Below, one piece after another: positions 1 to 32,344 of a stretch of 64,000 bases of DNA. The notes under the pieces are model-generated. The model was not told the origin of the DNA, ran no database searches, and worked only from the letters and a program-made list of their open reading frames with translations. The position numbers and the translations under genes were made by a program. Position 1 is the stretch's first letter. Each line of letters begins with the position of its first letter. Source of the stretch: an uncultured Acidimicrobiia bacterium (GTDB lineage: Bacteria; Actinomycetota; Acidimicrobiia; Spongiisociales; UBA11373); NCBI GenBank assembly GCA_964614095.1, contig CAZTJO010000001.1, positions 68,574 through 132,573 on the forward strand, given 5' to 3'.

Positions 1-271
1 CTCCGTCGACCAGCAACTCGTCGACGATCCCCACGATGACCGCGCGGATCGGCGCCGTGGGATCGGAGACCACCTGGCGTGCCGCGTTGCCCTCGTCGAT
101 GATCAGCACGGTCTCCCCGTACCCGGCATCGACCGAATCGACGCAGATGAGGTAGTCGCCGGTATCCCGGCCGTCGGCATCGAGCAGATCACACATGAGC
201 AAGCGGCGGTGGTCGTAGACCGGGGCACTGATGGTGGAGATCACGGTGCCGGACACGCGTCCGATCTTCAC
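1..271 (-). CDS. BMC vertex (pentamer) shell protein, EutN/CcmL/PduN family (BMC-P); 3' end probably runs off the window
   Basis: Manual translation of the reverse strand from a GTG at 271 gives VKIGRVSGTVISTISAPVYDHRRLLMCDLLDADGRDTGDYLICVDSVDAGYGETVLIIDEGNAARQVVSDPTAPIRAVIVGIVDELLVDG, a typical EutN fold signature (GTVV.T...VDxVGAG.GE.VL...GS.AR; AxIVGIVD). The GTG overlaps the TGA of the upstream BMC-P (GTGA). This gene is not in the ORF track because it is edge-truncated. Confidence 0.7.
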   Translation of the reverse strand, partial: MKIGRVSGTVISTISAPVYDHRRLLMCDLLDADGRDTGDYLICVDSVDAGYGETVLIIDEGNAARQVVSDPTAPIRAVIVGIVDELLVDG

Positions 272-537
272 GATCGCTCCACGTGGTCGACGATCCCCAC
301 GACGGCATGATCGACCGGGACGAACGGATCGGGCATCGCCAGCGCGGCCTCCCGGCTCCCCACGATGTAAACCATCTCCCCAGGGCCGGCCATGTGCACT
401 CCGTCGCCGGCCACCACCTGGCGCCCGACCGGGTTCCGATCGCGATCCAGCGGCTGCACTACCAGGAAGCGGACCCCTGCCAAACCCTCACACTTAACCG
501 TGGCGACGACGGTCCCGGTGACCCTAGCGAGCTGCAT
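268..537 (-). CDS. BMC vertex (pentamer) shell protein, EutN/CcmL/PduN family (BMC-P)
   Basis: Track ORF 268..591(-). An internal Met gives MQLARVTGTVVATVKCEGLAGVRFLVVQPLD...AVDHAVVGIVD, the EutN/PduN signature. Start placed at the ATG at 537; the 18 aa upstream lack homology. Confidence 0.75.
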   Translation of the reverse strand: MQLARVTGTVVATVKCEGLAGVRFLVVQPLDRDRNPVGRQVVAGDGVHMAGPGEMVYIVGSREAALAMPDPFVPVDHAVVGIVDHVERS

Positions 538-1129
538 CCGGGCCTCCTCCCTTCCGGCCGGCCCGCGGCCCGAAGCGGGCATCGCCCTCAAGGTTCTCGG
601 TCATCTCGGGGTGCAGGCTGGGGATGACCGACGCCCGCACCAAATGGCCCTGCGGCACCCGTCCGGCGCCGATCTCCACCGCGGCCTCGACGTCGGGGAC
701 CTCGCCCCCGAACAACACATAGCCCTTGCCGCCCAGGCCGTCGGCCATACGCAGCTCCACGATGACGACATCGGCCCCCTTGACGCCCCCGTCGGCGGCC
801 TCCAGTATCGAGGCCACCGAGGTGGTCTCCACAACCCCCAGGGCCTCAATAGCACCGACAATGGTGGTCCCCCGCACCGCCGCCACCACGCCGGGATGGA
901 CGTCGGGGAGGAACACGATGTCGAGCATCGACTCGCCGGAAGCGCCCTGCCCGGCGTCGATCGCCTCCTCGACGCTGGCGGTGTCGCCGGCCACCAACAC
1001 CAGGTAGTGGCCGGGCTGCACCGTGCCCGCCACCAGCGCCGAGATCGGGGCTCGCTTCGCCATGGCGTCGCCGGCGACAATGCCCGCCGCCACCGAGTTG
1101 AATTCGAGCAGTGCTAGTGCGGGGTGCAT
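524..1129 (-). CDS. Tandem BMC-domain shell protein (BMC-T, PduT-like)
   Basis: 201 aa with two BMC domains: ALALLEFNSVAAGIVAGDAMAKRAPISAL...VAGDTASVEEAIDAG and GAIEALGVVETTSVASILEAADGGVKGADVVIVELRMADGLGGKGYVLFGGEVPDVEAAVEIG. Lies between an aldehyde dehydrogenase and BMC-P genes. Confidence 0.75.
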   Translation of the reverse strand: MHPALALLEFNSVAAGIVAGDAMAKRAPISALVAGTVQPGHYLVLVAGDTASVEEAIDAGQGASGESMLDIVFLPDVHPGVVAAVRGTTIVGAIEALGVVETTSVASILEAADGGVKGADVVIVELRMADGLGGKGYVLFGGEVPDVEAAVEIGAGRVPQGHLVRASVIPSLHPEMTENLEGDARFGPRAGRKGGGPDAAR

Positions 1130-1130
1130 G

Positions 1131-2585
1131 TCAGATGATCCTCAATGCGCCGACCACGGCGATGCGGCGCTCGCGGGTGAAGGTGAGCGGCCGGGTCATG
1201 CCGTCGCCGCTAGGGCTGGCGATGGAAAAGGAGGTGAAACCCTCACCCCCCTGGCCCAGGCCGGCGTAGTTGGGGCCATTGGCGATAAAGATGCTCACGC
1301 TGATGGTGCGCGCCATCCGGGTGATGGTGGAAACGTTGGTGGAGTGGATCGAGGCCGTGTGTCGGAAGCCGTGCTCGGCGCGCACCGCCAGATCGATCGC
1401 CTCGTCGATGTTCGACGCCCGGACCACGGGCATCACCGGCATCATCTGCTCGGTCCACACCAGGTTGTGCTCGGGGGGCACCTCAACGACCAGCAACCGG
1501 GGATCACCCTCGACCTCGACCCCGGCCGCCTGGGCGATCACCCCGGCGTCCTTTCCGATCCAGCGCGGGTTGATCACGCCCGGCTTTGAGGGCGGCCCCA
1601 TCGAGGAGAACACCAGGCGCTCCACCTTGCGCAGCTCGTGCTCCTTGAGGATGTGGGCCCCGTTGCGGCCCATGGCTCGCAGCAGCTCGTCCGCCACGGA
1701 GCGGACGACGATCGTCTCCTTCTCGTCGATGCAGATGATGTTGTTGTCGAAGGAGGCCCCGGCGACGATGTCGCGGCCCGCCTGCTCCAGGTTGGCGGTC
1801 TCATCCACCACCGCCGGCGGGTTGCCGGGCCCGGCGGTCACCGCTCGCTTGTCGGTCTTGAGCGCCTCTCGCACCACCCCCGGGCCCCCGGTGACGAGGA
1901 GAACCTGGATCTTGGGGTGGTGCATCAGCTCCTGGGCACTCTCGATGGTGGGGACGGCCATCGTGGTCACCAGGTCGGGGGGTCCGCCGGCAGCGAGAGT
2001 CGCCCGGTTCAGGAGCCGCACCGCTTCGGCGGACACCTTCTTGGCGTTGGGGTGAACGTTGAATACCACCCCGTTGCCGCCGGAGAGGATGGCGATGGCG
2101 TTGTTGATGATGGTGGCCGTGGGATTGGTGGTGGGGGTGATCGAGCCGATCAGGCCGAAGGGGGCCATCTCGGTGAGCATCATCCCGTCGTCCCCGGTCT
2201 CGATGATGGGATCCAGATCCTCCGGGCCCGGGGTGCGGGTGGCGACGAGCAGGTTCTTGCGAACCTTGTCCTCCACGCGCCCCAGCCCCGTCTCCTCCTG
2301 GGCCATTTTGGCCAGCCGCTCGGAGTTGTCCACCATGGTGCGCCGGATTGAGTCGATGACGGCCACCCGGATCTCCGACCCCTTTTGCTGGTACTGGGCG
2401 CAGGCGCGATCGGCGGCGACGACGGCCGCGTCCACGGTCTCGTAGATGCCCTCCCCAAGCTCGATCTCGGGCACTTCGACCGGGACCCGGGGCCTCTCGG
2501 GCACGGCTTCGGCCGTGCCTCCCAGACGGAGGCGGACCCGAGCGATGATCTCGTAGATCTCCTCCTGGTCCAAGCCGGTGGTCAT
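1131..2585 (-). CDS. CoA-acylating aldehyde dehydrogenase (PduP/EutE-like) with N-terminal encapsulation-peptide-like helix
   Basis: ALDH superfamily, acylating type (IVVRSVADELL..., GPNYAGLGQGGEGF, Cys-containing catalytic region IICIDEKE). ATG at 2585 gives MTTGLDQEEIYEIIARVRLRLGG, an amphipathic helix followed by a linker, as in PduP encapsulation peptides. The start sits 1 nt after the upstream BMC-P stop (TGAcATG). Confidence 0.8.
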   Translation of the reverse strand: MTTGLDQEEIYEIIARVRLRLGGTAEAVPERPRVPVEVPEIELGEGIYETVDAAVVAADRACAQYQQKGSEIRVAVIDSIRRTMVDNSERLAKMAQEETGLGRVEDKVRKNLLVATRTPGPEDLDPIIETGDDGMMLTEMAPFGLIGSITPTTNPTATIINNAIAILSGGNGVVFNVHPNAKKVSAEAVRLLNRATLAAGGPPDLVTTMAVPTIESAQELMHHPKIQVLLVTGGPGVVREALKTDKRAVTAGPGNPPAVVDETANLEQAGRDIVAGASFDNNIICIDEKETIVVRSVADELLRAMGRNGAHILKEHELRKVERLVFSSMGPPSKPGVINPRWIGKDAGVIAQAAGVEVEGDPRLLVVEVPPEHNLVWTEQMMPVMPVVRASNIDEAIDLAVRAEHGFRHTASIHSTNVSTITRMARTISVSIFIANGPNYAGLGQGGEGFTSFSIASPSGDGMTRPLTFTRERRIAVVGALRII

Positions 2586-2586
2586 G

Positions 2587-2883
2587 TCAGTCGCGGTACT
2601 TGTGGTACATGGTGTCGCCCCCAACCTCCCAGGTATCGACGATCGCCATCACGACGGCGTCGCAGGGCCGGTCCTTGGTGTGGATCGTCTGGCGCGCCGC
2701 CGACCCGGTGGCGTACATCACGATCTCCCCGATGCCGGCGCCGACGGCGTCGGCGGCCACCACGTAGGACCCGGTCTCGGTCTCGTCCACATCGATTTGG
2801 CGCAGCACGAGGAACTTGAGCCCCTCGAGCGTCGCCTCCTTGCGGGTGGCAACGAGCGTCCCGGCAACGCGGCCCAACAGCAT
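2587..2883 (-). CDS. BMC vertex (pentamer) shell protein, EutN/CcmL/PduN family (BMC-P)
   Basis: 98 aa: [31 protein letters not shown]...[23 protein letters not shown]...AVVMAIVD. Third EutN-family paralog in the locus. Confidence 0.8.
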
Positions 2884-2899
2884 GCGTGCCTCCCGACGC

Positions 2900-3205
2900 T
2901 CAGTCCGCGATCTCGGCTTCGGCCTCCTCGGCTCGGCCGAGCGGGAGTACCAGGTCGATATTGACGTGCGGGCGCGCGATCACGTGGGTGGCGATCACCT
3001 CGCCAACCTTCTCTGCGCCGCGGGTCCCGGCGTCGATGGCGGCCTTCACCGCGGCGACGTCGCCGCGCACCACCGCGGTCACATAACCGCCGCCCGTCTT
3101 CTCATAGGACACCAGCTCGACCTTGGCTGCCTTGACCATCGCGTCGGCCGCCTCGACCATCGCCGGAAAACCGCGGCATTCGATCATGCCGAGTGCTTGT
3201 GCCAT
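2900..3205 (-). CDS. BMC hexamer shell protein (BMC-H, PduA/EutM-like) with short acidic C-terminal tail
   Basis: [60 protein letters not shown]...VIARPH is a canonical PF00936 BMC domain. AAGGAGAG Shine-Dalgarno sequence upstream on the minus strand. Confidence 0.85.
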
Positions 3206-3241
3206 TGGCTCTCCTTGCTCCGTCCTTCTGTTCCGAAACCC

Positions 3242-3874
3242 CTACTCGTCCATGGGCCGGCCGTCCAGCCCCTCCAGGGCCGCCACCGCGGCCCGCCAGC
3301 CCACGTCGATGTCCCGCTCCTCGCCGCCAAGGTACACCCGGCCCAGCGAGCCGAAGGAGCGGACCTCGAGTATGTTGATCTCAGCGGCCTTCTCCGCCTC
3401 ATTGGCGGCGATGGCGGCGTAGGAGGCCGGCTCCATCTCGAGCACGTACAACGTCTGCCCCGGGATCAGCATCTGGCCGTGCCGCATGCGGTTGATCAGC
3501 TGCGCCTGGTGGTCGTCGATGCGACGAATGATCTGGCTGCTGGCGATACGGGGCTTGATGCGGCTCTCCTCCTTGGCTTCGATCGCATCGAGGATGGCGG
3601 CGCCGGCGGCCCTGGTCTCCGCCTGGTGGGGCGAATGCACCTCGAGCAACCCGAAGTAGCGCTCGACGATCTGCATGCCCGGTCGCACCGTGGTCGCCTT
3701 GAGGGCGACGTCGGTGAGACGGTTGATCTCGATCCCCGGGGAGATCTCCACAAACAGGGAAGCCTCTCCGGCCAGCGGGAGGAAACCCTGGGCGACCGTG
3801 CCCAGGAACGCGGCGTACTGGGGCTGCAGACTGTCGAGGAACGAATACCCCCGCAGGTCGACATTGTTGCTCAC
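3242..3874 (-). CDS. Tandem BMC-domain shell protein (BMC-T)
   Basis: 210 aa. Two BMC-like halves: ([39 protein letters not shown]...) and ([61 protein letters not shown]). GTG start overlaps the deoC stop (GTGA). Lacks the PduL motifs (no GxSNRHxHL / RHIHM), so it is not the phosphotransacylase. Confidence 0.6.
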
Positions 3875-4725
3875 TGAGCCCCTCCCGTCTCGCCGACGAT
3901 CTCGATTCCGGCCGAGGCGCCGATCCGGGTGGCCCCGGCGGCGATCATCTCCTCGGCGTCCCGGCGGGTGCGGATGCCGCCGGAGGCCTTCACTCCCATC
4001 TCCGGGCCGACGGCCTCCCTCATGAGGGCGACGTCGTAGACGGTGGCGCCCCCGGGCCCGAATCCCGTCGAGGTCTTGACGAAATGGGCTTTCGACTGCT
4101 TGGCGAGGCGGCTGACGATGACCTTCTCCTCATCGGTGAGCATCGCCGCCTCGATGATGACCTTGCACACCGCTCCGGCCTCCCGGCAGGCGTCGACGAC
4201 TCCGGCGATGTCCCGGGCCACCAGGTCGTATTCGCCCGATTTGAGGGCACCCACATTGATCACCATATCGATCTCACGCGCCCCGTCCCGAATGGCTTCG
4301 CGAGCCTCCATCGCCTTAATCCGCGGGGTGTGGGCTCCCAGGGGGAAGCCGATCACGGAACAGGTGATCACGTCGGAGCCGCGCAGTTTCTCGGCAACCC
4401 GCTTCACCCAGGCCGGGTTGACGCAGACCGCGGCGAAGCCATAGGTGATGGCCTCGTCGCACATCCGGTCGATGTCCCCGGAAGTGGCGTCGGCCTTGAG
4501 CAGGGTGTGATCGATGAAGCCGGCGAGGTCGGTGGGCACGTCGGCGCCGGCCCCGTTGTAGGAGATGCGGCTCGCCCCGGCCGCCACCACCTGACGCACC
4601 TTCTCGGAGGAATGCGAGGCGCAGTCGCCGAAGCACACCAGGCACTCGGCGAAGGCCCCACCGGTGAGTGCCGAGAGCACCTCCCGGGTCACCGCCTCCA
4701 CAATGGCATCGAAGTCGTCGCTCAT
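3871..4725 (-). CDS. deoC: Deoxyribose-phosphate aldolase (class I DeoC) with about 60-aa N-terminal extension (encapsulation-peptide-like helix plus Cys-containing linker)
   Basis: Core [12 protein letters not shown]...[10 protein letters not shown]...VIGFPLGAH...IDMVIN...FVKTSTGF...[10 protein letters not shown]...GASRIGAS aligns along its length with class I DeoC, including the Schiff-base Lys region (FVKTSTGF). The N-terminus from the ATG at 4725 is [23 protein letters not shown], followed by [21 protein letters not shown] overlap with the rpiB stop. Confidence 0.85.
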
Positions 4726-5381
4726 AGGGCCGACCGCCCCGCCGGCGCCAGGTACCTTCGCTCGATCTCGCCGATCTTCTTCACCCGGCGGGCGTGGCGG
4801 CCTTCGGCCCACGGCGTGTCGAGCCAGGTCTCGACGATCTGCCAGGCCAAGCCCTCGCCGATGAGTGCGGCGCCCAGCGTGAGCACATTGGCGTGGTTGT
4901 GCTCGCGGCTGTTGCGAGCCGAGGACAAGTCGTAGCAGAGCGCGGCCCTGATCCCCGGCACCTTGTTGGCTACCATGGCCGACCCGATCCCGGCGCCGTC
5001 CACGACGATTCCGTAGGTGCAGGCACCCGAGGAGACCTGCTCGGCCACCGCCAGCGCCAGGTCCGGATAGTCGACGGCCTCGGTGGAGTCGGTCCCGCAG
5101 TCCACCACAACGTAGCCTTGCTCCCGGAGCCGGAAGACCAGGCGCTCCTTGAGTTTGAAGCCCCCGTGATCGGCCCCGATGGCGATCGAAGCGGCGGTGC
5201 CGGACGCAGGACCGGCGGGAACGGGAGCAGGTGCGGCGACCGGCGCAGCGGCTGAGGATCGATCTGCCAGCACCCCGGTCACCACTCGGGTCACCAGGGC
5301 GCGAATCTCTTCCTCGTCTGGAAGTACCGGGCGAGTCACCAAGGCATTATTCCACGAAAGCCACCGCCCGGCGGTGGTCAT
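4722..5381 (-). CDS. rpiB: Ribose-5-phosphate isomerase B (RpiB/LacAB family) with N-terminal encapsulation-peptide-like helix and Ala/Pro-rich linker
   Basis: C-terminal 150 aa IAIGADHGGFKLKE...VVDCGTDS...DYPD...GIVVDGAGIGSAMVANKVPGIRAALCYD...NHANVLTLGA match RpiB. Start chosen at the ATG at 5381: MTTAGRWLSWNNALVTRPVLPDEEEIRALVTRVVTGVLADRSSAAAPVAAPAPVPAGPASGTAAS. Further-upstream in-frame codons exist, so start confidence is moderate. Confidence 0.75.
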   Translation of the reverse strand: MTTAGRWLSWNNALVTRPVLPDEEEIRALVTRVVTGVLADRSSAAAPVAAPAPVPAGPASGTAASIAIGADHGGFKLKERLVFRLREQGYVVVDCGTDSTEAVDYPDLALAVAEQVSSGACTYGIVVDGAGIGSAMVANKVPGIRAALCYDLSSARNSREHNHANVLTLGAALIGEGLAWQIVETWLDTPWAEGRHARRVKKIGEIERRYLAPAGRSAL

Positions 5382-5459
5382 CGCGCGGCACCTAGGCTGG
5401 GGCGAGCGACGCAGGAGCCGACTGTTGGCCGAAGACCCTACATCGATCTGGGAACAGCG

Positions 5460-5478
5460 GCGCCCGGGACGCGCCCGG
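5460..5478. promoter_or_regulatory. Direct repeat GCGCCCGG-N3-GCGCCCGG (contains CCCGGG palindrome) in the 100-bp divergent region between rpiB and the MerR-like regulator
   Basis: Read directly from the sequence. Lies immediately upstream of the regulator ATG (5482) and about 80 bp upstream of the BMC operon start (5381, minus strand). Confidence 0.3.
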
Positions 5479-5481
5479 CGT

Positions 5482-6033
5482 ATGCCCCGCTCCTCTCCCC
5501 AAGCAGCGACCGCGCCGTCTCCATCGCCCGATGAGATCGCCGCCGCGGCGGTCCCGATCGCCGCAGACCGGATCACCCTGCAGGAAGCAGCCAAGCGCTT
5601 CGGCGTCTCGGCTTCCACCCTGGGGTCGTGGTGCCGCTCCGGTGAGATCGATGCGGCGAAGCAGCAAGGCCGCTGGATGGTGGTCCCCCGCTCGGTCTCG
5701 ACGCGCCAGCGAGCCGGCCGAAGCCGCGGCGGCACCGCGCTGGCGGCCCGGAGCGGTCCCAGCGCCGATGGATCGGCGATGCTGGTGCCGCGCCATGCCT
5801 GGGACAAGCTGATGGACCAGCTGGGCAACCTCCATCAGGCCGGGCAGCAATTGGCCGAGGCCCGGGAGCGGGCGGCCCGCGCCGAGACGGAGGCCAGGTT
5901 CCTGCGGGAACGCCTGGGCGAGATGCGCCAAGAACGGGACACCTTGCGGCGGAGAGTCGGCGAGGAGCCAGCCCCGGCCCGGGGAACAGTGCCGCTGCGC
6001 ACCCGTCTGGCCCGAATCTTCGGGCGCGGCTGA
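5482..6033 (+). CDS. MerR/excisionase-like helix-turn-helix DNA-binding protein with C-terminal coiled coil; candidate regulator divergent from the BMC operon
   Basis: ITLQEAAKRFGVSASTLGSWCRSGEIDAAKQQGRWMVVP is a MerR-type HTH. C-terminus is Arg/Glu/Leu-rich (LAEARERAARAETEARFLRERLGEMRQERDTLRRR), predicted coiled coil. Start at the ATG at 5482 within track ORF 5179..6033; start is uncertain. Confidence 0.5.
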   Translation: MPRSSPQAATAPSPSPDEIAAAAVPIAADRITLQEAAKRFGVSASTLGSWCRSGEIDAAKQQGRWMVVPRSVSTRQRAGRSRGGTALAARSGPSADGSAMLVPRHAWDKLMDQLGNLHQAGQQLAEARERAARAETEARFLRERLGEMRQERDTLRRRVGEEPAPARGTVPLRTRLARIFGRG

Positions 6034-12096: not shown

Positions 12097-12348
12097 CTAG
12101 GCCTTTTTCGTCTCGGCAAAGATCTGGGCAATCTCATCGTTGAGCGCCAGCAGCTCTTCACCGACGGCGGGATCCATCGACTTCTTGGCATCGCCGGCCT
12201 TTTTGGTCGCCCTCCAGAAGAGGTCGTGGAGCTGCGGGAAACGTTCGACGTGGGGCGGCTTGAAGTAGTCGGTCCACAACACCCAGAGGTGATGTTTGAC
12301 GAGCTCGGCCCGCTGCTCCTTGATGATGACGCAGCGTTGGCGGAACAC
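12097..12348 (-). CDS. Hypothetical protein; downstream part of an ORF interrupted by an in-frame TAG (see findings)
   Basis: Track ORF, 83 aa, begins at GTG. The same frame continues upstream past a TAG (12373-12375) into a 36-codon ORF that has a strong AGGAGGT RBS and an ATG at 12483. Confidence 0.35.
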   Translation of the reverse strand: MFRQRCVIIKEQRAELVKHHLWVLWTDYFKPPHVERFPQLHDLFWRATKKAGDAKKSMDPAVGEELLALNDEIAQIFAETKKA

Positions 12349-12550
12349 CTCGTCGTCGGAGTCTTGGTACTTCTAAGCGATGGCCTTCACTGACTCTGCC
12401 TCGATGCGGGCCTGGGCCGGGTCGTAGACACCGCAGAACAGATCGCAGTGGGCGTGGGCGACACGACGGGGTCTGAGCAGCATGAGCTGGGTACCTCCTG
12501 ACTGAGATCGTTCACCCTACACTCGCCCCGATTGCTGTATGGAGGCCGTG

Positions 12551-12964
12551 ATGAAGCGTCTTGCGCTGCTGCTCGCCGGCGTCCTTGCCGCGGCCTATGT
12601 GGCACGACGCGTCGTGGCCTACGAGATCGCCGACCGGAGCATGGAGCCCACCTTGCGTCACGGCGACTGTGTCCTGGGCTGGCGCCGGCCGCGCCGCCTG
12701 CGCCGGGGACAAATAGTGGTAATCGAACACCCGATGCGGCCGGCCTTCGAGATGGTAAAAAGAATCGCCGCCGCTGCCGGCGAGGATGCCGACGGCCGCA
12801 CTCTCGGCCCCGGAGAGATCTGGGTACTCGGAGACAACGCCGATGCCGGGAGCGTCGACAGCCGCTCTCTGGGCATCCTCAGGACACGGTGGGTGAGGGC
12901 CATGGTGTTTCTCCGCTATCGGCCCTGGCCTCCGCTCGTTCTCGGCACCAACCCCGATCGCTAA
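12551..12964 (+). CDS. lepB: Signal peptidase I (S26 family, LepB-like)
   Basis: N-terminal transmembrane segment, catalytic SMEPTL motif, GDNADAGSVDSRSLG box. GGAGG Shine-Dalgarno 5 nt upstream of the ATG at 12551. Confidence 0.8.
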   Translation: MKRLALLLAGVLAAAYVARRVVAYEIADRSMEPTLRHGDCVLGWRRPRRLRRGQIVVIEHPMRPAFEMVKRIAAAAGEDADGRTLGPGEIWVLGDNADAGSVDSRSLGILRTRWVRAMVFLRYRPWPPLVLGTNPDR

Positions 12965-13002: not shown

Positions 13003-14733
13003 ATGACAACCGAAACTCCCGCCGAAGCTGGCAGCAAGTCCCATTTGGGCCGCAATCTCGCCATTTTTGTCGGTGGCACACTCGCCGCACTCCTCCTGGT
13101 GGGCGGGGCCGCCGCTCTGATGCGCAAGGGCGAGGCGCCCTTCCCCGGTGCCGAGATCATGCCGCCGGATCCCCTCGTGTACTTGCACGTCGACATCTCC
13201 GATCCCGACGCCGACCGGCTCATCGCCACGTTCGATGAGGCCAGCGCCGAGCTTGGTGGAGGCCTTGAGGCGATGATCGCAGACAGTGGGCTTCTGGAGA
13301 GTCTCGGGATCACCAACGGCATGGACCTGGACACCGACGTGCGGGCCCAGGTCGACACCTGGCTGGGAGAGACGCTCGGCACCGATCTCGAGGAGTTGCG
13401 TGATGTGGCCGGTGACGAGATGGCTCTGGGAATCTACAACGTCGATTTTGGACGTTTCCTGGACACAACGAATGCATCCATGCTCATCGCCGTGGAGATG
13501 AAGGGTGACGCCGCGGCCTTCCTGGACAAGACCATCGCTTTTGTGGAGACCGAGCAAGACGTCTCCTTCACCGAGACGAGCCATGGCGAAGACGTGATCC
13601 ACACCGCCGATGATGTCGGCGGTGAGTCCATGTCCCTGACCCTCTCCGACGGCGTCCTCATCATGGCTAACGATGCGGACCTGCTTGTTGCTGCACTCGA
13701 CGCCCGAGCCGGCGAATCACTTGCCGATGACCCGGACTTTGCGGACGTCCTGGCCGAGCTGCCCGAAGACCGTATGGTCACCGCCTACCTGGCCGTTGAC
13801 CCCCTCGCCGAGCTGTACGAGCAGCTGCTCGGCTCGCCGCTGCTGGCCGGCACCGCGGTCGCCGAAGACCAGCTGCAGGCCGGCCTCGAAGCAGTGCACG
13901 GCGTCGGAATGAGCGTTGTGCTCGACAGCGATTCCGCGCGTATCGACCTGGTGACGATCGACGATCCGGAGGACCCGGAGTTTGCCGCCGCAGGACCCAT
14001 GGTCGCCAGTGACATGCCCGACCGTCTCCCCGCCGACACTGTGGCCTACGCCGGATTCGGCCCGATCGACCTCGGCATCGATTGGCAGACGATACGAGAC
14101 GAGATGAGTGCGGCGATCGATGCACCGGAGATGGCGAGCGTCCAGGGACTGCTGGATTGGGTCGAATTCAACGCCGGGGTCAGTTTCCAGGAGGATCTCT
14201 TCGATCAGCTCACCGGCGAGATGGCATTCGGCCTCTTCCCGGCAACCGAAGGCGTCATCGCCGCCTCGGGCGAGGCCAACCTCGGTTTTGTGGCGGGTGC
14301 AGGGATCAACGACCCGGCCTCGATGGCGGACACCATCGAGGCCTTGCTGCCCATGGCTCAGATGCTGATCGGGATTGAGCCGACGCAGATCGCTCCCGGG
14401 CTATACAGCCTCCCCATGGGTGACGGCGGTGGCGTGGTCATCGGAATCGCCGGTGACTACGCGGTCATAGCCAGCCACGAGGACCATGCCAATCTGATCG
14501 GAGATGGCGCCGCGGAAGCGCTCTCCGGCTCGCCGGTCTACCAGCAGACCATGAGCGCCCTGCCCGACGGATCGGTGCCCGTCTTCTATCTGGATGTGAC
14601 CGGACTGATAAATGCCATCGAGGTGCCTGACGATGTTGCAGCCATGCTGGCTCCGCTGCAGTCGGCGGGAGTCTCGATACACAACACGCCCGGCGTCTCC
14701 CTGATCACCATGGTCGTGTTCATCGACTACTGA
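13003..14733 (+). CDS. Large acidic membrane-anchored protein of unknown function (DUF3352-like)
   Basis: 576 aa, single N-terminal transmembrane segment (LAIFVGGTLAALLLVGGAAAL), then a highly acidic (D/E-rich) soluble domain. GGAGGG Shine-Dalgarno sequence. Family assignment from memory only. Confidence 0.5.
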   Translation: MTTETPAEAGSKSHLGRNLAIFVGGTLAALLLVGGAAALMRKGEAPFPGAEIMPPDPLVYLHVDISDPDADRLIATFDEASAELGGGLEAMIADSGLLESLGITNGMDLDTDVRAQVDTWLGETLGTDLEELRDVAGDEMALGIYNVDFGRFLDTTNASMLIAVEMKGDAAAFLDKTIAFVETEQDVSFTETSHGEDVIHTADDVGGESMSLTLSDGVLIMANDADLLVAALDARAGESLADDPDFADVLAELPEDRMVTAYLAVDPLAELYEQLLGSPLLAGTAVAEDQLQAGLEAVHGVGMSVVLDSDSARIDLVTIDDPEDPEFAAAGPMVASDMPDRLPADTVAYAGFGPIDLGIDWQTIRDEMSAAIDAPEMASVQGLLDWVEFNAGVSFQEDLFDQLTGEMAFGLFPATEGVIAASGEANLGFVAGAGINDPASMADTIEALLPMAQMLIGIEPTQIAPGLYSLPMGDGGGVVIGIAGDYAVIASHEDHANLIGDGAAEALSGSPVYQQTMSALPDGSVPVFYLDVTGLINAIEVPDDVAAMLAPLQSAGVSIHNTPGVSLITMVVFIDY

Positions 14734-16184: not shown

Positions 16185-17446
16185 CAGACCTCTGTTCCTG
16201 CGGGGATCACCTCGCCGCGAGCCACAACGATGACTCCGTCTCGAATGAACCAGCCCGCACCGTCGGCTTCCCATACCCCGTCCTTGTTGACGAGGCGGCA
16301 GCCGTCCCCGACGCGGGAGTTCTTATCGACGATAGCGTTGCGGACGCAGCAATCGTGGCCGATGCCCTGCCCCGGCAGGCCCGGCGGAGGAGCGTACTCA
16401 AACTCGTCCGCCCCCATGATCACGGTGCTCTCGATCTCAGAGCCCGAGCGCACCACACCCCGAATCCCGATAATCGATCTGGTCAGACGAGAACCCTCCA
16501 CCACGGAGCCGTCGGAGAGGATCGACTCGAAGACCTGGCAATCGGTCACCTTGCTCCCGGGAAGGAAGCGGGGCCTCGTGTAGATGGGGAAATCGGGGTC
16601 GTAGAGGTCGAGCGCGGGCACCTGGCGAGTCAGTTCGAGGCTGGCCTCGTGGAACGACCTGATGGTCCCGATATCCCTCCAGTAGCCACGGTGGGCGTAT
16701 CCGTACACGGAGAGATTCGTAACCGCCTGTGGAATGAGATCCCCGCCGAAGTCGTCCCCCTTGTACTCATCCAGCAGGCGCACCAGGATCTCGGTTCTGA
16801 AGACGTACATCCCCATGCTGGCAAGCAGCGCACCGGGATCAGCGTCGATTCCGGTGGCATCGATGGTGTCGCTGTCCAGGGCAAGATGGGACATGGCCTC
16901 ATCGGTCTGGGGCTTCTCGACAAACTCGACGAGCCGGCCATCACGACCGAGGCGCATGATGCCCAGGCCTCCAGCCGCCTCGGCGCTCACCGGCTTGAGC
17001 GCGATGCTGATATCGGCCTCACGTTTTCGGTGTTGCTCGACGAATCCCGCCAGGTCCATGAGATAGAGCTGGTCACCCGAGAGGATGATGATCTCGGCGG
17101 GCCCCATGTCGACAAGCCGGTGAATGTTCTGGCGAACGGCATCGGCCGTGCCCTGGTACCAATCCCGGTTCTCCAGGCTCTGCTCTGCGGCGAGGATGTT
17201 CACGAAGCCTCGCGAGAACATGTCGAATCGATAGGTCTGGGCGATATGTCGGTGCAGGCTGGCGCTGTTGAACTGGGTGAGCACAAAGATGCGGTCGACG
17301 CCGGCATGCAGACTGTTGCTGATCGGAACGTCGATGAGCCGGAACTTGCCCGCCACGGGAACGGCGGGTTTGGCCCGATCCCGGGTCAGGGGCCACAGCC
17401 GTGACCCCCGGCCTCCGCCGAGGATGGCCGTCACCACGTTTCGCAT
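16184..17446 (-). CDS. glgC: Glucose-1-phosphate adenylyltransferase
   Basis: ILGGGRGSRLWPLTRDRAKPAVPVAGKFRLIDVPISNSLHAGVDRIFVLTQFNS is the GlgC N-terminal signature, followed by a C-terminal left-handed beta-helix. Confidence 0.9.
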   Translation of the reverse strand: MRNVVTAILGGGRGSRLWPLTRDRAKPAVPVAGKFRLIDVPISNSLHAGVDRIFVLTQFNSASLHRHIAQTYRFDMFSRGFVNILAAEQSLENRDWYQGTADAVRQNIHRLVDMGPAEIIILSGDQLYLMDLAGFVEQHRKREADISIALKPVSAEAAGGLGIMRLGRDGRLVEFVEKPQTDEAMSHLALDSDTIDATGIDADPGALLASMGMYVFRTEILVRLLDEYKGDDFGGDLIPQAVTNLSVYGYAHRGYWRDIGTIRSFHEASLELTRQVPALDLYDPDFPIYTRPRFLPGSKVTDCQVFESILSDGSVVEGSRLTRSIIGIRGVVRSGSEIESTVIMGADEFEYAPPPGLPGQGIGHDCCVRNAIVDKNSRVGDGCRLVNKDGVWEADGAGWFIRDGVIVVARGEVIPAGTEV

Positions 17447-17522
17447 CCGTCTCCCTCCAGGACACCGGACCGTGCGCTCACCCTACTCCGGGCGACGGCT
17501 GTACCCGATAGCATCTGCGCTC

Positions 17523-19853
17523 ATGAACTTGACCAAGCTTGCGCTGCGTTTGTTGGGAAAACGACTTCCCGTCACCTCGGGCCGGATTGAGGTGGAAGGC
17601 GTCTCCCAGCACGTCGTCATCCATCGTGATCGATTTGGAATCCCCCATATCGAGGCAAAGACCGACGCCGACGCCTGGTATGCCTTGGGTTTCTGTCATG
17701 GCCAAGACCGGCCATTCCAGATTGAGACTCGGCTGCGGGTAGTGCGCGGGACCCTCGCCGAGCTCATCGGAGCCGACGGGCTCGCCATTGACAGGCTGAT
17801 GCGTCGCATCGGCTTCCGGCACCACGGCGAGCAGCTCGTCGCCGCCCTGGGGGACCGTCACCGGCCCTTGGCCGAGGCATACGCCGCCGGGGTCACCGCC
17901 GGCGCCACCAGCGGCCTCTCCCGGCGCCCGCACCCCTTTGCTCTGCTCCGCTCCCGTCCCAGCCGGTACGAGGCAGCCGACACCCTCGGCTTCCTCTGCC
18001 TGCAAGCCTTTCTGCTCGCGGCCAACTGGGATGTGGAGCTGGCCCGCCTCCAGATACTCGTTGCCGATGGACCGGACGCGGTCGAGGCTCTGGATCCGGT
18101 GTACCCCGAGTGGCTGCCCGTGTGCGATCGGCCCGGCGAAGCCGCCGGTGCGGCCGCCTCCCGTCTCTCCGACGACCTGGCCCGGCTGGCTGCCACCATC
18201 GGCGTCACCGGAGCGTCCAACAATTGGGCGCTTGCCCCATCTCGCACCGCCACGGGACGTCCCATACTCGCCAACGACCCTCATCTCGCTCCTCTCCTGC
18301 CGCCTCATTGGTACCTCATGCACCTGGAAACCCCGGACTGGTCGCTGGCCGGCGCATCGCTGGCCGGCACCCCGGCGGTGGCCGCCGGGCACAACGGCCA
18401 CGCCGCCTGGGGCATCACCGCCGCCTTGACCGACACGACCGATCTGTTCCTGGAGGAAATTGGACCCGATGGCCGCAGTGTGCGGCGTGGGGACGAGTTT
18501 GTGCCGTGTGAAGTGCGAAGCGAGACGATCCCGGTCAAGGGGCAACGATCCGAGCAACTCGATGTGCTCGTCACCGACCGGGGGCCCATCGTCGGGCCCG
18601 CCCTGGAAGGTGGCTTCGAGGCGCTGTCAATGGCCGCCACCTGGCTGCAACCGCGTTCCCTGGGCGCCATCTTTGAGCTGGGACGAGCCCGTTCGTTCTC
18701 CGATCTGCGTAGTGCCTTCTCCGATTGGGCCGCTCTTCCCGTCAATTTCGCCTTCGCTGAGGCCGGGGGCACGATCGGGATCCAGGTCGTCGGCAACCTC
18801 CCGGTCCGGTGCCGTGGGATAGGCGCGGTACCCCTTCCCGCCGCCGATCCACAGAACTGCTGGGAAGATGATCTACTGCCCTTCGATGAGCTGCCGTCCG
18901 TGACTGATCCCGAGGTGGGTTTTGTCGTTACCGCCAACAACCTCCCCTCGACCTCCGCAGCCCATCTCGGATACGACTTCCTCGACGGGTATCGGGCCGC
19001 CCGCATCTGCGAGACACTCGACGCGCGCCATGACTGGGACCTGCCCTCCACCCTGCGCCTGCAGATGGACCGGCACTCGATCCCGTGGAGGGAACTGCGC
19101 CCCACCGTTCTCGCTTCGCTCGAAGGAGATGCCGAGCTGGGTACCGCCCTCGGCCTTCTCTCAGATTGGGACGGTGAGATCGAGTCGGGCTCGGCGGCAG
19201 CATCTCTCTTCGAGTTCTTCGCCGCCGAGATGACGTGCGCCGTTGCCGAGGCCAAGGCGCCGCACAGCGCCAAATGGGCTCTTGGTGAGGGCTTCACCCC
19301 ACTCGTGCCGCTGAATGCCTTCCTCGTACGCCGCGTCTCCCATCTGGTCCGGCTGCTCAAGCAGCAGCCGCCCGGCTGGTTCGCCGAGGGATGGGAGGCC
19401 GCCATTCGCCGGGCGATGCAGAACGCAGTGCGGCGGCTCACCAACACCTACGGACCCGACCCCGAGGGTTGGGCCTGGGGAAAGATCCGACCCCTCACCT
19501 TCACCCACCCGCTCGGGGCGCGCTGGCCCCTGAACAAGGTCTTCAATCTGGGCCCCCTTGCACATGGGGGTGACGCCAACACCGTGAATCCGGCACCCGT
19601 CGATCCTCGGCGGCCGACGGGTAATCCCGATTTTGCCGTGGCCTCGCTGCGTATGGTGATCGATGTCGGCAAGTGGGATCTCAGCCGGTTCGTGCTGCCC
19701 GGTGGGCAATCCGGCAACCCCTTCTCTCCCCACTACTCGGATCAACTGCGGCTGTGGCAGCTGGGCGATGCGCTGCCCATCCCGTGGTCGAAACAGGCGG
19801 TGCAGAGGGCCACTTGGTCCACACTTGTGCTCGAACCCGGTGCCCCTGCCTAA
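17523..19853 (+). CDS. Penicillin amidase / acyl-homoserine-lactone acylase family protein (Ntn hydrolase, S45)
   Basis: GIPHIEAKTDADAWYALGFCHGQDRPFQIE, SNNWALAPSRTATGRPILANDPHL (Ser-Asn-Asn autoproteolytic site). About 776 aa from the ATG at 17523; the track ORF N-terminal extension overlaps glgC and is rejected. Confidence 0.8.
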   Translation: MNLTKLALRLLGKRLPVTSGRIEVEGVSQHVVIHRDRFGIPHIEAKTDADAWYALGFCHGQDRPFQIETRLRVVRGTLAELIGADGLAIDRLMRRIGFRHHGEQLVAALGDRHRPLAEAYAAGVTAGATSGLSRRPHPFALLRSRPSRYEAADTLGFLCLQAFLLAANWDVELARLQILVADGPDAVEALDPVYPEWLPVCDRPGEAAGAAASRLSDDLARLAATIGVTGASNNWALAPSRTATGRPILANDPHLAPLLPPHWYLMHLETPDWSLAGASLAGTPAVAAGHNGHAAWGITAALTDTTDLFLEEIGPDGRSVRRGDEFVPCEVRSETIPVKGQRSEQLDVLVTDRGPIVGPALEGGFEALSMAATWLQPRSLGAIFELGRARSFSDLRSAFSDWAALPVNFAFAEAGGTIGIQVVGNLPVRCRGIGAVPLPAADPQNCWEDDLLPFDELPSVTDPEVGFVVTANNLPSTSAAHLGYDFLDGYRAARICETLDARHDWDLPSTLRLQMDRHSIPWRELRPTVLASLEGDAELGTALGLLSDWDGEIESGSAAASLFEFFAAEMTCAVAEAKAPHSAKWALGEGFTPLVPLNAFLVRRVSHLVRLLKQQPPGWFAEGWEAAIRRAMQNAVRRLTNTYGPDPEGWAWGKIRPLTFTHPLGARWPLNKVFNLGPLAHGGDANTVNPAPVDPRRPTGNPDFAVASLRMVIDVGKWDLSRFVLPGGQSGNPFSPHYSDQLRLWQLGDALPIPWSKQAVQRATWSTLVLEPGAPA

Positions 19854-19881
19854 TCCCACGCACGGCTACCCTTCACCCGCC

Positions 19882-20955
19882 ATGAAACGCCTCCCCATAG
19901 TCCTGCTGATCGCGCTCGCCGTCATCTTTGCTGCCTGCTCCGGCGACGATGCCGCCAAGACGCTGGCGGCGGAATCACCGGTCACGGCATCGTCGAGCAC
20001 GTCGACATCAACGAGCTCGACGTCCACGACGACCACAACCATGGACAAGGGGATCCCATCACCCATCAACGGGCTCCTGGTTTACGACCCCAGCCTGCTG
20101 GATCGGCGGGTCATCGCAGTCAAGATCGACAACCACCCCGCGGCGCGGCCGCAGTCGGGGCTCCAAGAGGCCGATGCCGTCATCGAGTACCTGGCCGAAG
20201 GGGGCATTGGACGGTTTGTCGCCCTCTTCCACCACAGCGACAGCGAATACCTGGGTCCGGTGCGTTCGATCCGTCCCACCGACTTCACAATTCTTGCCCG
20301 CCTCGATGCCACCCTGGTGGTCTCTGGCGGCCAGCAGTGGGTGCAGAACCTCACTGCGGCCAACGGAGTGAGTTATATGGGCGAAGGGATCAGCGGGCTC
20401 TTCCGTGTCTCGCTGGACCGCACCTGGGAGCACACTCTCTACGCCAACACCACCGTTCTGCGCGAGAACGCAGATGCCTACGGGTTCGATGATGGACTCG
20501 CCGGTGCTCTGTACGGCATCGAAGAATGGGAGGCGCTGCCCGAAGAGCCCGTGGAGAGGGTCAGCCTCGATTGGGCTCCGTATAACACCGTCACCTGGGT
20601 CTACGAGGACGGGAGCTACAAGCGCTTCGAGGGCGTCCACGCCCTCGAGTGGATAGACGTTGACGGCAATCGGGGACAGCTCGCCTTCGACGTCCTGATC
20701 ATCATCGAAGGCAACCAGTACTTTTACTATCCGCCCCCAGGTGATACGACACGGGCGCTGCCGGCGATAGAGACCACCGGATCCGGCAACGTCTACATCC
20801 TCAGTGAGGGCCGTATGCTGCGCGGGACCTGGCAACGGGGCAGCATCACCGGCTACTTCAGCTTCTACGACCTCGACGGGAACGAGGTCGCCGTGCCACC
20901 GGGTGTCCCGTGGATCTCGTTCTTCCCTGCGGGCCGCTCCATCAGCTTCTCCTAG
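19882..20955 (+). CDS. Lipoprotein, DUF3048-like, with Ser/Thr-rich linker
   Basis: Signal peptide plus lipobox (LIALAVIFAAC), then an S/T run (SSSTSTSTSSTSTTTTT), then VIAVKIDNHPAARPQSGLQEADAVIEYLAEGGIGRFVALFHHSD. Confidence 0.65.
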   Translation: MKRLPIVLLIALAVIFAACSGDDAAKTLAAESPVTASSSTSTSTSSTSTTTTTMDKGIPSPINGLLVYDPSLLDRRVIAVKIDNHPAARPQSGLQEADAVIEYLAEGGIGRFVALFHHSDSEYLGPVRSIRPTDFTILARLDATLVVSGGQQWVQNLTAANGVSYMGEGISGLFRVSLDRTWEHTLYANTTVLRENADAYGFDDGLAGALYGIEEWEALPEEPVERVSLDWAPYNTVTWVYEDGSYKRFEGVHALEWIDVDGNRGQLAFDVLIIIEGNQYFYYPPPGDTTRALPAIETTGSGNVYILSEGRMLRGTWQRGSITGYFSFYDLDGNEVAVPPGVPWISFFPAGRSISFS

Positions 20956-21022
20956 TCGTTCCGCTCATGCAGCCACCACCTCCCTTCCAGCACAAGCCAG
21001 GACATGGCTACGCTGTGCGGCC

Positions 21023-22195
21023 ATGAGACGGTCTTTTCTTGTGCTTGCGGCGGCGACGGTTGTGATCGCCGTCGCCGTGATCGTGCTGGTGCCCGCAGGC
21101 GGCGATGAGCCGGCCACCACCACCGTCAACAACATCGCCGGCCCATCCACTACAGGTGGCCCCACCATCTCAACGAGCACAACTTCGAACTCCACATCAA
21201 CCACCGCCGTGCCGGGACCTCCCTCACCGCTCAACGGGCTACCGGTGGCCGACCCAGACCTGCTCGATCGCCGTGTGGTGGCGGTGAAAATCGACAACTA
21301 CCCCTCGGCGCCCCGGCCCCAATCGGGACTGCAGGACGCCGACGCCGTTTTTGAATACCTCGTCTACGGCGACTCCACTCGCCTTCTGGTCCTCTTCCAC
21401 CACAGCGACAGCGAATGTCTGGGTCCAATTCGGTCGATCCGGCCCACCGACTCCGCCCTCCTTGCCCGCATCGCGCCGGTGATCTTCATCTCCGGAGGCC
21501 AGGCCTACATCCGTTCGCTGTCTTGGGACCGTGGCGTCGGCATCCTCAACTACGAGCGGTACGGATACTGGATCATCAACGCCCCCGGCCCACACGAGTT
21601 CACCAAATACAGCACCACGTCCGGCATGCGTCAGGCCGCCGACGATTACGGCTACGCCGACGAATTCTCCGGATGGCTCTACGAGATCGCCGAGTGGGAC
21701 GATCTGCCCGAGAAGAGCGCCACCAATATCTCTCTCGAGTGGTCCAACTCATACACCGCCGGCTGGGTCTACGAGGACGGCGTCTACAAACGATATGCCA
21801 ACGGCGACCCCGACTTGTGGATCGACCAGGAGGGCCTCGACAGGTGGATCCTGGCAGAGGACTACGGAGAATCACTGAATTCGGTGGCCGCCGAGATCAT
21901 CGAGGAAGGCCATGGGGCCCAGCTGGCCCACGACGTCCTGGTGGTCATGCTGGGGCACCAGGGCTATGCCTTTCCACCGGAGGGCGTCGACGGTTCGCCG
22001 GTCCCGCAGTTCTACACCACCGGATCCGGCGACCTGCTCATCTTCTATCAGGGCCGCGTGCTCGAAGGCACCTGGGAACGCAACCTCATGACCGACGAGT
22101 TCCTCCTGCTCGACAATGAGGGGAATCCGGTGACCGTCCCGCCCGGCCTTCCCTGGATCTCGTTGTTCCCCGATACCTACTCCATCACCTACTGA
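21023..22195 (+). CDS. DUF3048-like secreted/membrane-anchored protein (paralog of 19882..20955)
   Basis: N-terminal transmembrane/signal segment, then S/T/G-rich linker, then VVAVKIDNYPSAPRPQSGLQDADAVFEYLVYGDSTRLLVLFHHSD. High identity with the upstream gene along the whole length. Confidence 0.65.
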   Translation: MRRSFLVLAAATVVIAVAVIVLVPAGGDEPATTTVNNIAGPSTTGGPTISTSTTSNSTSTTAVPGPPSPLNGLPVADPDLLDRRVVAVKIDNYPSAPRPQSGLQDADAVFEYLVYGDSTRLLVLFHHSDSECLGPIRSIRPTDSALLARIAPVIFISGGQAYIRSLSWDRGVGILNYERYGYWIINAPGPHEFTKYSTTSGMRQAADDYGYADEFSGWLYEIAEWDDLPEKSATNISLEWSNSYTAGWVYEDGVYKRYANGDPDLWIDQEGLDRWILAEDYGESLNSVAAEIIEEGHGAQLAHDVLVVMLGHQGYAFPPEGVDGSPVPQFYTTGSGDLLIFYQGRVLEGTWERNLMTDEFLLLDNEGNPVTVPPGLPWISLFPDTYSITY

Positions 22196-22384
22196 GCGCA
22201 AGCGGAGGGGACAGACGGGCTCCACGTCTGCGGCGCTCATCCCACACCGACACCCCAATCGTGCACTACGAGTTGCCTCGAGCGCACCCATACAATGCGC
22301 TGGCCAGCCAACGGAGGACCACTACGGCGTCACCCGGCAGATGCCACTGCCGTTTTCTCACACCGACGGGGAGATGATCGACGC

Positions 22385-27120: not shown

Positions 27121-27431
27121 TCAAGACGCGACGGACACCGTCGGCCCATCCCCGGGTGCCGCATCCTCCTTCACCGGCACCGCCCGATCGGTAAGCAGCG
27201 TCACCATGTTCGCCGAGATCTGGAGAAAACCCCCGTGCACGGACAGCTGCACCTGATCCCCGGTAACCGGCGTAATGACGGTGGTCCCCGACGCCAGGGC
27301 CGCCATCAGCGGCTCATGTCCGGCGAGCACCCCCATCTCACCCTCGGTGGTGCGGGTGACGAGCATCTCGGCCTGGCCTGCCCACACGATCGCTTCCGGC
27401 GACACCACCTCGAGCCGGAAGCCCACCGTCA

Positions 27432-27432
<1 letters not shown>
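27121..27432 (-). CDS. atpC: F1 ATP synthase epsilon subunit
   Basis: 103 aa, LEVVSPE...VLAGHEPL... epsilon signature. Last gene of the atp operon. Confidence 0.8.
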
Positions 27433-29727
<2,295 letters not shown>

Positions 29728-29733
29728 GGTTCG

Positions 29734-32340: not shown

Positions 32341-32344
32341 GGCT

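Follow-up and report, generated by a model that had tools for sequence, protein, structure and literature searches.

A nine-gene operon in an uncultured Acidimicrobiia bacterium that very probably encodes a sugar-phosphate-utilising microcompartment of the SPU3 subtype

At one end of a 64,000-nucleotide stretch of DNA from an uncultured Acidimicrobiia bacterium (contig CAZTJO010000001.1, positions 68,574 to 132,573; hereafter the window), genes for bacterial microcompartment (BMC) shell proteins are interspersed with genes for an aldolase that acts on deoxyribose 5-phosphate (DERA/DeoC), a CoA-acylating aldehyde dehydrogenase (AldDH) and a protein of the RpiB family. Which organelle do these genes encode, is the set complete, and what might an RpiB-like protein do inside a shell? 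Our answer to the first two questions is that the region is very probably a chromosomal operon for a sugar-phosphate-utilising (SPU) microcompartment of the SPU3 subtype, complete except for six codons; for the third, the family members that have been studied suggest a role in organising the enzymatic cargo.

Gene content, conservation and subtype of the operon

The SPU type was first defined in 2014 (Axen et al.; PMC4207490) and by 2021 included more than 280 loci from 26 phyla in seven subtypes (Sutter et al., Nat Commun 12:3809; PMC8217296). For SPU3, Supplementary Data 2 of the 2021 catalogue lists as enzymes only AldDH, pf02502 (the RpiB family) and pf01791 (DeoC), with the pf02502 gene first, and no phosphotransacylase (PTAC), alcohol dehydrogenase (ADH) or PduS. 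The shell is described as having one BMC-H, a triplet of BMC-P of which two are adjacent, a CcmP-like BMC-Tdp, and a BMC-Ts that occurs without PduS and has no pore cysteine; N-terminal encapsulation peptides (EPs) are present on AldDH and DERA, Actinobacteria are among the host phyla, and satellite loci are 'not common' (PMC8217296).

The operon in the window matches this description point by point. Nine tightly packed ORFs have the same direction on the minus strand (1-5339), and all are intact except for the last, which is cut by the window edge; in the order of transcription, that is, from 5339 towards 1, they encode the RpiB-like protein, DERA, BMC-Tdp, BMC-H, BMC-P1, the acylating AldDH, BMC-Ts, BMC-P2 and BMC-P3. 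The enzyme set and its order, the N-terminal EP on AldDH, the CcmP-like Tdp, the Ts with neither PduS nor cysteine and the actinobacterial host are those of SPU3, as are the single BMC-H and the BMC-P triplet with its adjacent pair. The general features of the SPU type are also present: a DERA with the catalytic Asp/Lys/Lys and an N-terminal extension, an EP-bearing AldDH, and a PF02502 protein in which Cys66 is replaced by Asp and His99 is kept. A first-pass annotation, made from the DNA letters without database searches, had proposed nine co-directional genes for three BMC-P, two BMC-T, one BMC-H, DeoC, RpiB and a CoA-acylating AldDH in an SPU-type locus; matches in Pfam, PDB and NCBIfam, together with conserved residues, support all of these assignments. 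The extent that it gave (1-6033) was too large, however: 6033 is the end of a divergent plus-strand gene, and the operon starts at about 5339. The features are the following; the G+C content of the window is ~66%.

4722-5339, minus strand: RpiB-like protein, 205 aa from GTG 5339 (the alternative ATG 5381 gives 219 aa); Pfam LacAB_rpiB
3871-4725, minus strand: DERA/DeoC, 284 aa, the SPU signature enzyme; PDB DERA and NCBIfam deoC matches
3242-3874, minus strand: BMC-Tdp, predicted CcmP-like double-stacking trimer with a gated pore, 210 aa; PDB CcmP match
2900-3205, minus strand: BMC-H, the sole hexamer gene, 101 aa; Pfam BMC
2587-2883, minus strand: BMC-P1, 98 aa; Pfam EutN_CcmL
1131-2585, minus strand: CoA-acylating AldDH, 484 aa; PDB 5jfl, NCBIfam PRK15398
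524-1129, minus strand: BMC-Ts, PduT-like pseudohexamer with tandem BMC domains, 201 aa; Pfam BMC twice
268-537, minus strand: BMC-P2, 89 aa (gene call from metagenome contig L001); Pfam EutN_CcmL
1-271, minus strand: BMC-P3, the final gene of the operon, 90 of 96 codons inside the window; NCBIfam CcmL/EutN
5346-5354, minus strand: putative promoter, extended -10-like element TGGAATAAT, 6 nt upstream of GTG 5339; DNA conservation
5425-6033, plus strand (divergent): HTH_17 (excisionase/MerR-like) protein, candidate regulator; Pfam HTH_17

Three of the four coupling overlaps that had been proposed are true 4-nt overlaps: ATGA at 4725-4722 (RpiB-like/DERA), GTGA at 3874-3871 (DERA/Tdp) and GTGA at 271-268 (P2/P3). 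The fourth, placed at 2585-2589, is a 1-nt gap, with the P1/AldDH junction (2589-2583) reading TGAcATG; the AldDH/Ts junction has the same form, and the Ts and P2 genes overlap by 14 nt. Longer ORF starts for RPI (the RpiB-like protein; 368 aa) and DERA (313 aa) were rejected, as their upstream portions are not conserved as protein; the long RPI ORF (to 5828) also overlaps the divergent HTH gene. Because transcription runs towards position 1, the window edge cuts the 3' end of the operon and is not, as had been assumed, its upstream side. In contig L001, which is 100% identical to the window, the P3 gene (4823-5113) encodes 96 aa, and only its last six codons are outside the window.

An AldDH-based scan of the GTDB species-representative genomes identified at least 559 stretches that encode relatives, and the best 80 were analysed; the species of the window is not among these. 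Their AldDHs are 63-83% identical to that of the window, with the top match (83%) in Acidimicrobiia metagenome-assembled genomes (MAGs); Acidimicrobiia MAGs make up most of the hosts, and there are also some Thermoleophilia/Gaiellaceae and a small number of bins with other labels. When mapped with tblastn, the order RPI-DERA-Tdp-H-P-AldDH-Ts-P-P is found in 80/80 loci; in the 61 of these that are uncut by contig ends, the complete set of nine is colinear. Accidental adjacency, which the first-pass annotation had named as the outcome that would speak against an operon, is excluded because the gene order recurs across all 80 loci. More generally, the idea that the shell and enzyme genes are chance neighbours, or a decaying locus that no longer makes a functional organelle, is already contradicted by the conservation data, and we give it a vanishingly small probability: the nine ORFs are intact and tightly coupled, the order persists in Acidimicrobiia, Thermoleophilia and others to ~63% AldDH identity, and the catalytic, gating and EP motifs are conserved.

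The locus differs from the published SPU3 description in two respects. RPI and DERA are encoded here by separate genes (with the 4-nt overlap), whereas 12 to 20 of the SPU3 loci in the catalogue have the two as a fusion; and the description includes neither a divergent HTH_17 regulator nor a leaderless-type promoter, of which the first is seen and the second inferred here. No Acidimicrobiia name was found in the portions searched of the supplementary files of the 2021 catalogue.

Two other subtypes were considered and rejected. SPU6, represented by Chloroflexi bacterium GWB2_54_36, is the sole SPU locus with purified enzymes, and it resembles the window operon in the N-terminal extension and catalytic spacing of DERA, in the Cys to Asp replacement, His99, EP and linker of RPI, and in having three BMC-P, one BMC-H, a Tdp and no PTAC. 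However, the SPU6 AldDH belongs to the EUT3 branch and has its EP at the C-terminus, whereas the EP is N-terminal here; the SPU6 Tdp belongs to the 'blue' clade, whereas the Tdp here is CcmP-like; no Ts is listed among the shell genes of the characterised SPU6 locus; the regulator of that locus is a GntR/UTRA protein encoded in the same direction; and SPU6 hosts are Chloroflexi only. The assignment to SPU6 was rejected on the N-terminal EP of AldDH, the CcmP-like Tdp and the Acidimicrobiia relatives. SPU2 loci have four BMC-P (the triplet and an extra green-clade copy), a Ts that usually has the pore Cys, and Bacteroidetes, Spirochaetes or candidate-phyla hosts (PMC8217296); we rejected this subtype also, since the locus in the window has three BMC-P and a Ts without cysteine, and its host is an actinobacterium.

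Comparison with other microcompartments places the locus among the catabolic types. The BMC of Haliangium ochraceum (HO) and the MIC7 type share the BMC-P triplet, Tdp and Ts, and their AldDHs are related to those of SPU3/5/7; however, their main loci have no DERA or RPI, and the locus here has both. With the EUT, PDU and GRM types the predicted organelle shares the logic of a signature enzyme that makes an aldehyde inside the shell, an acylating AldDH that consumes it (homologous to 5jfl) and EP-targeted cargo; it differs in that the signature enzyme is DERA and in having no PTAC or ADH for internal cofactor recycling. The Tdp matches CcmP of the beta-carboxysome over its full length and shares the gating Glu-Arg, yet it falls under the NCBIfam CcmP cutoff. 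A beta-carboxysome was rejected: scans of the window found no RuBisCO, CcmM/CcmN or carbonic anhydrase, and the scores with the CcmP, CcmL and CcmO equivalogs are below their cutoffs. Judged by these genes, the locus encodes a catabolic metabolosome and not a carboxysome.

Shell, cargo enzymes and the proposed pathway

The Pfam scan used gathering scores, and all of the components pass except the Tdp. EutN_CcmL matches BMC-P1 (2587-2883) with 101.6 bits and BMC-P2 (ORF 268-591) with 85 bits; BMC-P3 (96 aa) is recognised by the NCBIfam CcmL (E=8e-19) and EutN (E=2e-16) models, both under their equivalog cutoffs. The three BMC-P are distinct paralogues with pairwise identities of 34-42% (P2 vs P1, 42%; P2 vs P3, 34%), and P2 and P3 are adjacent. 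In BMC-Ts (524-1129), Pfam BMC matches in two stretches (111.5 bits) and NCBIfam eut_PduT gives 98.7 bits, under its cutoff; its 201 residues include no cysteine, hence no pore cysteine. BMC-H (2900-3205; Pfam BMC, 103.7 bits) has the edge motifs KAAK and ARPH, the latter with Ala in place of the first residue of PRPH, and the identical protein is encoded on 6 public metagenome/SRA contigs.

The shell assignments of the first-pass annotation, which it had tied to Pfam cutoffs, are upheld with one qualification: the Tdp misses the PF00936 cutoff (22.4 vs 24.5 bits) and is instead a strong CcmP homologue. In the PDB it matches CcmP 4ht5 over its full length (E=3.6e-83), with further matches to 5lsr (E ~4e-83), the HO BMC-T 5v76 (E=4e-72) and CsoS1D (E=2.8e-52); its sole NCBIfam match is CcmP (329.6 bits vs a cutoff of 340), the gene has a PF27545 CsoS1D_N match on record, and E71-R72 preserve the gating Glu-Arg pair. 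By these homologies, the 210-aa protein at 3242-3874 is a BMC-Tdp despite its sub-threshold Pfam BMC score. Together, one BMC-H, a gated Tdp, a cysteine-free Ts and the three BMC-P paralogues supply the predicted shell with its facets and vertices.

As aligned, DERA and AldDH keep their catalytic residues. DERA matches Pfam DeoC (PF01791; 53.5 bits for ORF 3871-4812), the NCBIfam deoC equivalog (273 bits vs a cutoff of 117) and, in the PDB, DERA 8qps (255 bits). D153, K217 (the Schiff base lysine, in FVKTSTG) and K246 (in GVKASGG) are present, with a 64/29 spacing that is the same as that of D165, K229 and K258 in the active SPU6 DERA; the lysine of CKVIIE is the equivalent of E. coli K137. 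AldDH matches Pfam Aldedh (PF00171; ORF 1131-2624) and NCBIfam PRK15398 (609 bits vs a cutoff of 403), and the catalytic Cys is kept as C285 in FDNNIIC (FDNNxxC). It also matches PDB 5jfl (annotated as an aldehyde dehydrogenase; E=1e-124), which we take to be the BMC-associated PduP-type enzyme of Rhodopseudomonas palustris, and its C-terminus reaches the end of the solved fold.

DERA, AldDH and the RpiB-like protein each have a conserved N-terminal extension that is predicted to form an amphipathic helix of the shell-targeting kind. The DERA extension, of ~65 aa, is kept by the relatives and comprises an EP-like helix, then a Cys/His-rich loop, then the segment KVRxVVxxGAxRISY. In alignments with solved non-BMC DERAs, the match begins only at residue 66 of the 284-aa form, which is residue 95 in the 313-aa ORF. 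AldDH starts with the EP-like motif EE(I/V)xEIIxRVRxRLGG followed by a linker, and the RpiB-like protein with the EP motif PSE(E/D)E(I/V)RALVxR(V/I)V followed by a Pro/Ala-rich linker; both are kept in the relatives. The helical hydrophobic moments of the extensions are moderate (0.45-0.58).

Two observations on DERA stand apart from its catalytic assignment. Between the EP helix and the barrel (residues ~27-39; window 4530-4570, minus strand) is a semi-conserved C-x2-C-x-G-x-C-x2-H motif that is present in many related loci and missing from some; this motif could be a metal or redox site, and a term search of the main text of the 2024 SPU paper (PMC11585597) found no mention of it. One distant relative, binned as Chloroflexia (locus L080), has another DeoC-family paralogue at 13785-14687 (plus strand), with 44% identity to the DERA of the window; it is encoded ~1 kb downstream of the BMC operon and after an RCC1-repeat protein.

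What would such an organelle do? The first-pass annotation stated that the SPU type had never been biochemically characterised, but this is out of date. The DERA and RPI of an SPU6 locus have been purified (Dwyer, Sutter & Kerfeld, 2024, Commun Biol 7:1562; PMC11585597): DERA is active on 2-deoxyribose 5-phosphate (dR5P), and RPI is essentially inactive on ribose 5-phosphate (R5P; Cys66 to Asp) and complexes with DERA; EPs were also described. In addition, a 2025 preprint reports SPU-type compartments in Hodarchaeales (Asgard archaea) and the self-assembly of their shell (PMC12747264).

From the work on the SPU family, we infer that dR5P derived from the breakdown of DNA or nucleosides would enter the shell and be cleaved by DERA to glyceraldehyde-3-phosphate (GAP), which would exit to glycolysis, and acetaldehyde, which the shell would confine until AldDH converts it to acetyl-CoA and NADH. 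The RpiB-like protein would bind DERA and help to build the cargo core. The locus has no gene for PTAC, ADH or PduS, so that exchange of CoA and NAD+ with the cytosol is required, plausibly via the large gated pore of the Tdp; for subtypes without PTAC, it has been proposed that acetyl-CoA leaves via the Tdp pore (PMC11585597).

Alternatively, the locus could be the main part of a larger system, perhaps not SPU3, in which a PTAC/PduL, PduS or ADH with EPs is encoded by a satellite locus. Satellite or split loci do occur in several SPU types (PMC8217296), the inspected part of this genome is 64 kb, and cofactor recycling is otherwise unexplained. However, SPU3 is described with AldDH, RPI and DERA only and with satellite loci as 'not common' (PMC8217296), the Ts has no pore cysteine, a trait that is tied to the absence of PduS in other subtypes, and the ORFs scanned in the window and the downstream flanks examined in relatives include none of these genes. 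Specifically, no PTAC, PduS, ADH, triose phosphate isomerase (TPI) or additional shell gene was found among the ORFs scanned across the window, in agreement with the absence of PduL and ADH from the locus noted in the first-pass annotation. Its further suggestion that PduL and ADH lie beyond position 1 fares less well: in L001, ~208 bp after the last BMC-P have no called gene, and in the five closest genome relatives examined the genes beyond P3 are mostly on the opposite strand, that is, convergent. Three of the relatives' loci (L008, L009 and L011) were scanned beyond P3; no PduL/PTAC, PduS or ADH was found in these flanks, which encode a 6-phosphogluconolactonase/NagB-like protein, a PPK-NUDIX fusion, a housekeeping RpiB, an EPSP-synthase-family protein and MeaB. 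We regard the larger system as improbable and retain the assignment as a self-contained SPU3 operon.

Several points weigh against this assignment and the proposed pathway. The SPU3 subtype is assigned by a match to the published verbal description and not by the HMM/colour-clade classifier of its authors; the biochemical data are for the Chloroflexi SPU6 locus, whose AldDH and Tdp clades differ from those found here; and the formation of a shell and the use of dR5P as substrate in this organism are predictions from the genes. Cofactor recycling without PTAC, ADH and PduS is unexplained experimentally, no nucleoside phosphorylase, phosphopentomutase or deoxyribokinase gene was seen within the 64-kb window, and the promoter and the role of the regulator (see below) are proposed from conservation.

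The RpiB-like protein

The first-pass annotation regarded the role of an encapsulated RpiB as unknown; this holds in part, although the 2024 study provides evidence for a packaging or complex-forming role (PMC11585597). The protein in the window belongs to the family by its Pfam LacAB_rpiB match (PF02502; 180 bits for ORF 4722-5828), and NCBIfam names it 'ribose 5-phosphate isomerase B' (153 bits vs a cutoff of 139) with the catalytic Cys gone; weak NCBIfam matches are to the LacA/LacB and erythrulose-4-P isomerase models. In the alignment to C. thermocellum RpiB (3he8/3ph3), IVICGTG is replaced by IVVDGAG, that is, the catalytic Cys (E. coli Cys66) by Asp and the neighbouring catalytic Thr by Ala. 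In 64 related sequences that diverge to ~57% identity, the Asp is found in 63/64 and the Ala in 64/64, and the nine pocket positions that we tabulated (equivalents of D9, H10, Y43, H99, N100, R133, H134 and R137) are invariant (64/64). All SPU RPIs carry Asp at the Cys66 position (PMC11585597).

The contigs of many relatives also encode a canonical RpiB paralogue with a CGSG motif, 5-8 kb downstream of the BMC operon, on the side that in the window lies past position 1 (L008, 17105-17701, minus strand; also L009, L011, L014, L022, L028, L030 and others). As it keeps CGSG, this paralogue serves as an internal control for the Asp variant. By analogy with the SPU6 protein, the RpiB-like protein in the window, with both replacements, probably has no R5P isomerase activity; its likely role is to bind DERA and contribute to the organisation of the cargo core.

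Could it, within the same SPU organelle, be an active isomerase on a substrate other than R5P and not a dead packaging factor? Candidate substrates are a triose or tetrose phosphate (GAP/dihydroxyacetone phosphate, DHAP) or a deoxy-sugar phosphate. The invariance of the pocket and the fixation of both substitutions fit a selected pocket with altered chemistry, the weak LacA/LacB and erythrulose-4-P isomerase matches point in the same direction, and the RpiB family includes enzymes for C4 to C6 sugar phosphates. Furthermore, TPI is encoded in-locus in several other SPU subtypes and not in SPU3 (PMC11585597, PMC8217296). Against this, the SPU6 orthologue has negligible R5P isomerase activity and no substrate was found for it (PMC11585597); LacA has an Asp there too and is the non-catalytic member of the LacA/LacB pair (PMC11585597); and a conserved pocket could serve binding or complex formation alone. 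On balance we consider an active isomerase unlikely. Somewhat less likely again is a re-tooled isomerase in which the Asp, as a carboxylate base, and the retained His would act on a metabolite linked to the DERA reaction; if so, GAP/DHAP interconversion, as the candidate reaction, would replace the TPI of other SPU subtypes, and the minimal SPU3 core would gain a second catalytic step. We favour the DERA-binding, cargo-organising role.

From the comparison with relatives, the start of the RpiB-like protein is most likely GTG 5339 (or 5381), not 5828. The automated calls (ATG 5381 and the ORF to 5828) likely over-extend it because it is the promoter-like DNA that is conserved in this region, and not the reading frame.

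Promoter, regulator and the remainder of the window

The DNA motif CGTGG(G/A)ATAAT-N6-GTG precedes the EP-coding region of the RpiB-like gene in the window and its 13 nearest relatives; the sequence on either side diverges, and no conserved reading frame runs through the motif. A second clade of relatives has TAGGAT-N6-9-ATG/GTG at the same position. CGTGG(G/A)ATAAT is probably the extended -10 of a leaderless transcript that begins at GTG 5339; transcription of the operon would start there, under the control of the HTH_17 protein. This proposal rests on cross-species DNA conservation because generic scans gave nothing: sigma-70 promoter and terminator scans of the HTH/RPI intergenic region and the L001 tail returned no matches. 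An inverted-repeat search of 5340-5560 found merely weak GC-rich pairs, and Rfam at gathering thresholds, applied to the whole window, identified no riboswitch near the operon.

The divergent HTH_17 protein (5425-6033, plus strand; Pfam, 35 bits vs a cutoff of 27) starts with a region that holds a conserved DPxxIWE motif, and its C-terminal part appears coiled-coil-like by eye; a PDB sequence search gave insignificant matches only. Its start, TTG 5425, was chosen by N-terminal conservation, with AGGAG at 5413-5417 and TAGGCT at 5393-5398. A homologue is divergent and adjacent in 38 of the 58 related loci that have upstream sequence, and this recurrent arrangement suggests that the protein probably regulates the BMC operon. 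Other clades carry in its place either a GntR/UTRA regulator encoded in the direction of the operon or a protein that has the sugar-binding domain PF04198. This domain is found in regulators of the SorC/DeoR type, and one member of that family, Bacillus subtilis DeoR, responds to deoxyribose 5-phosphate.

Elsewhere in the window, the ORFs scanned are all housekeeping. They encode ABC-2 transporters, MurJ, a nickel superoxide dismutase (Ni-SOD) with an S26-type peptidase, GlgA, GlgC and a penicillin amidase; a 2-oxoacid:ferredoxin oxidoreductase, an F-ATPase operon, SHMT, RF1 and Rho; and a transaldolase-family protein, homoserine dehydrogenase, ArgRS and aconitase. The Sod_Ni gene (12097-12372, minus strand) adjoins the S26-type peptidase gene (12506-12964, plus strand), a pairing that resembles SodN with its maturation protease SodX; it suggests an ability of the organism to cope with oxygen. 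The penicillin-amidase-family gene (17235-19853) is followed by two paralogous DUF3048 genes in tandem (19660-22195, plus strand), and the adjacent 2-oxoacid:ferredoxin oxidoreductase genes (22196-25284, plus strand) encode POR and POR_N domains and then a TPP-binding subunit domain. The F1Fo ATP synthase operon (27121-33489, minus strand) has recognisable genes for the subunits epsilon, beta, gamma, alpha, b and a. The sole Rfam match in the window is a tRNA (49237-49308, plus strand; 68 bits) just upstream of the ArgRS gene.

Catalogues already cover this organelle type and subtype in hundreds of genomes and record its occurrence in Actinobacteria, and the core enzymes have been studied, so the locus is an ordinary new example. 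It does expose two errors of automated annotation: stored metagenome calls place the start of the RpiB-like protein at ATG 5381, inside the apparent promoter, and the name 'ribose 5-phosphate isomerase B' ignores the missing catalytic Cys. The conservation of the pocket in this protein sharpens the question of its role, and the locus suggests a lineage-specific HTH_17 regulator and a leaderless promoter. In many uncultured Acidimicrobiia and Thermoleophilia the compact nine-gene SPU3 operon shows strict conservation, in keeping with the proposal that deoxyribose from DNA serves as a carbon source.

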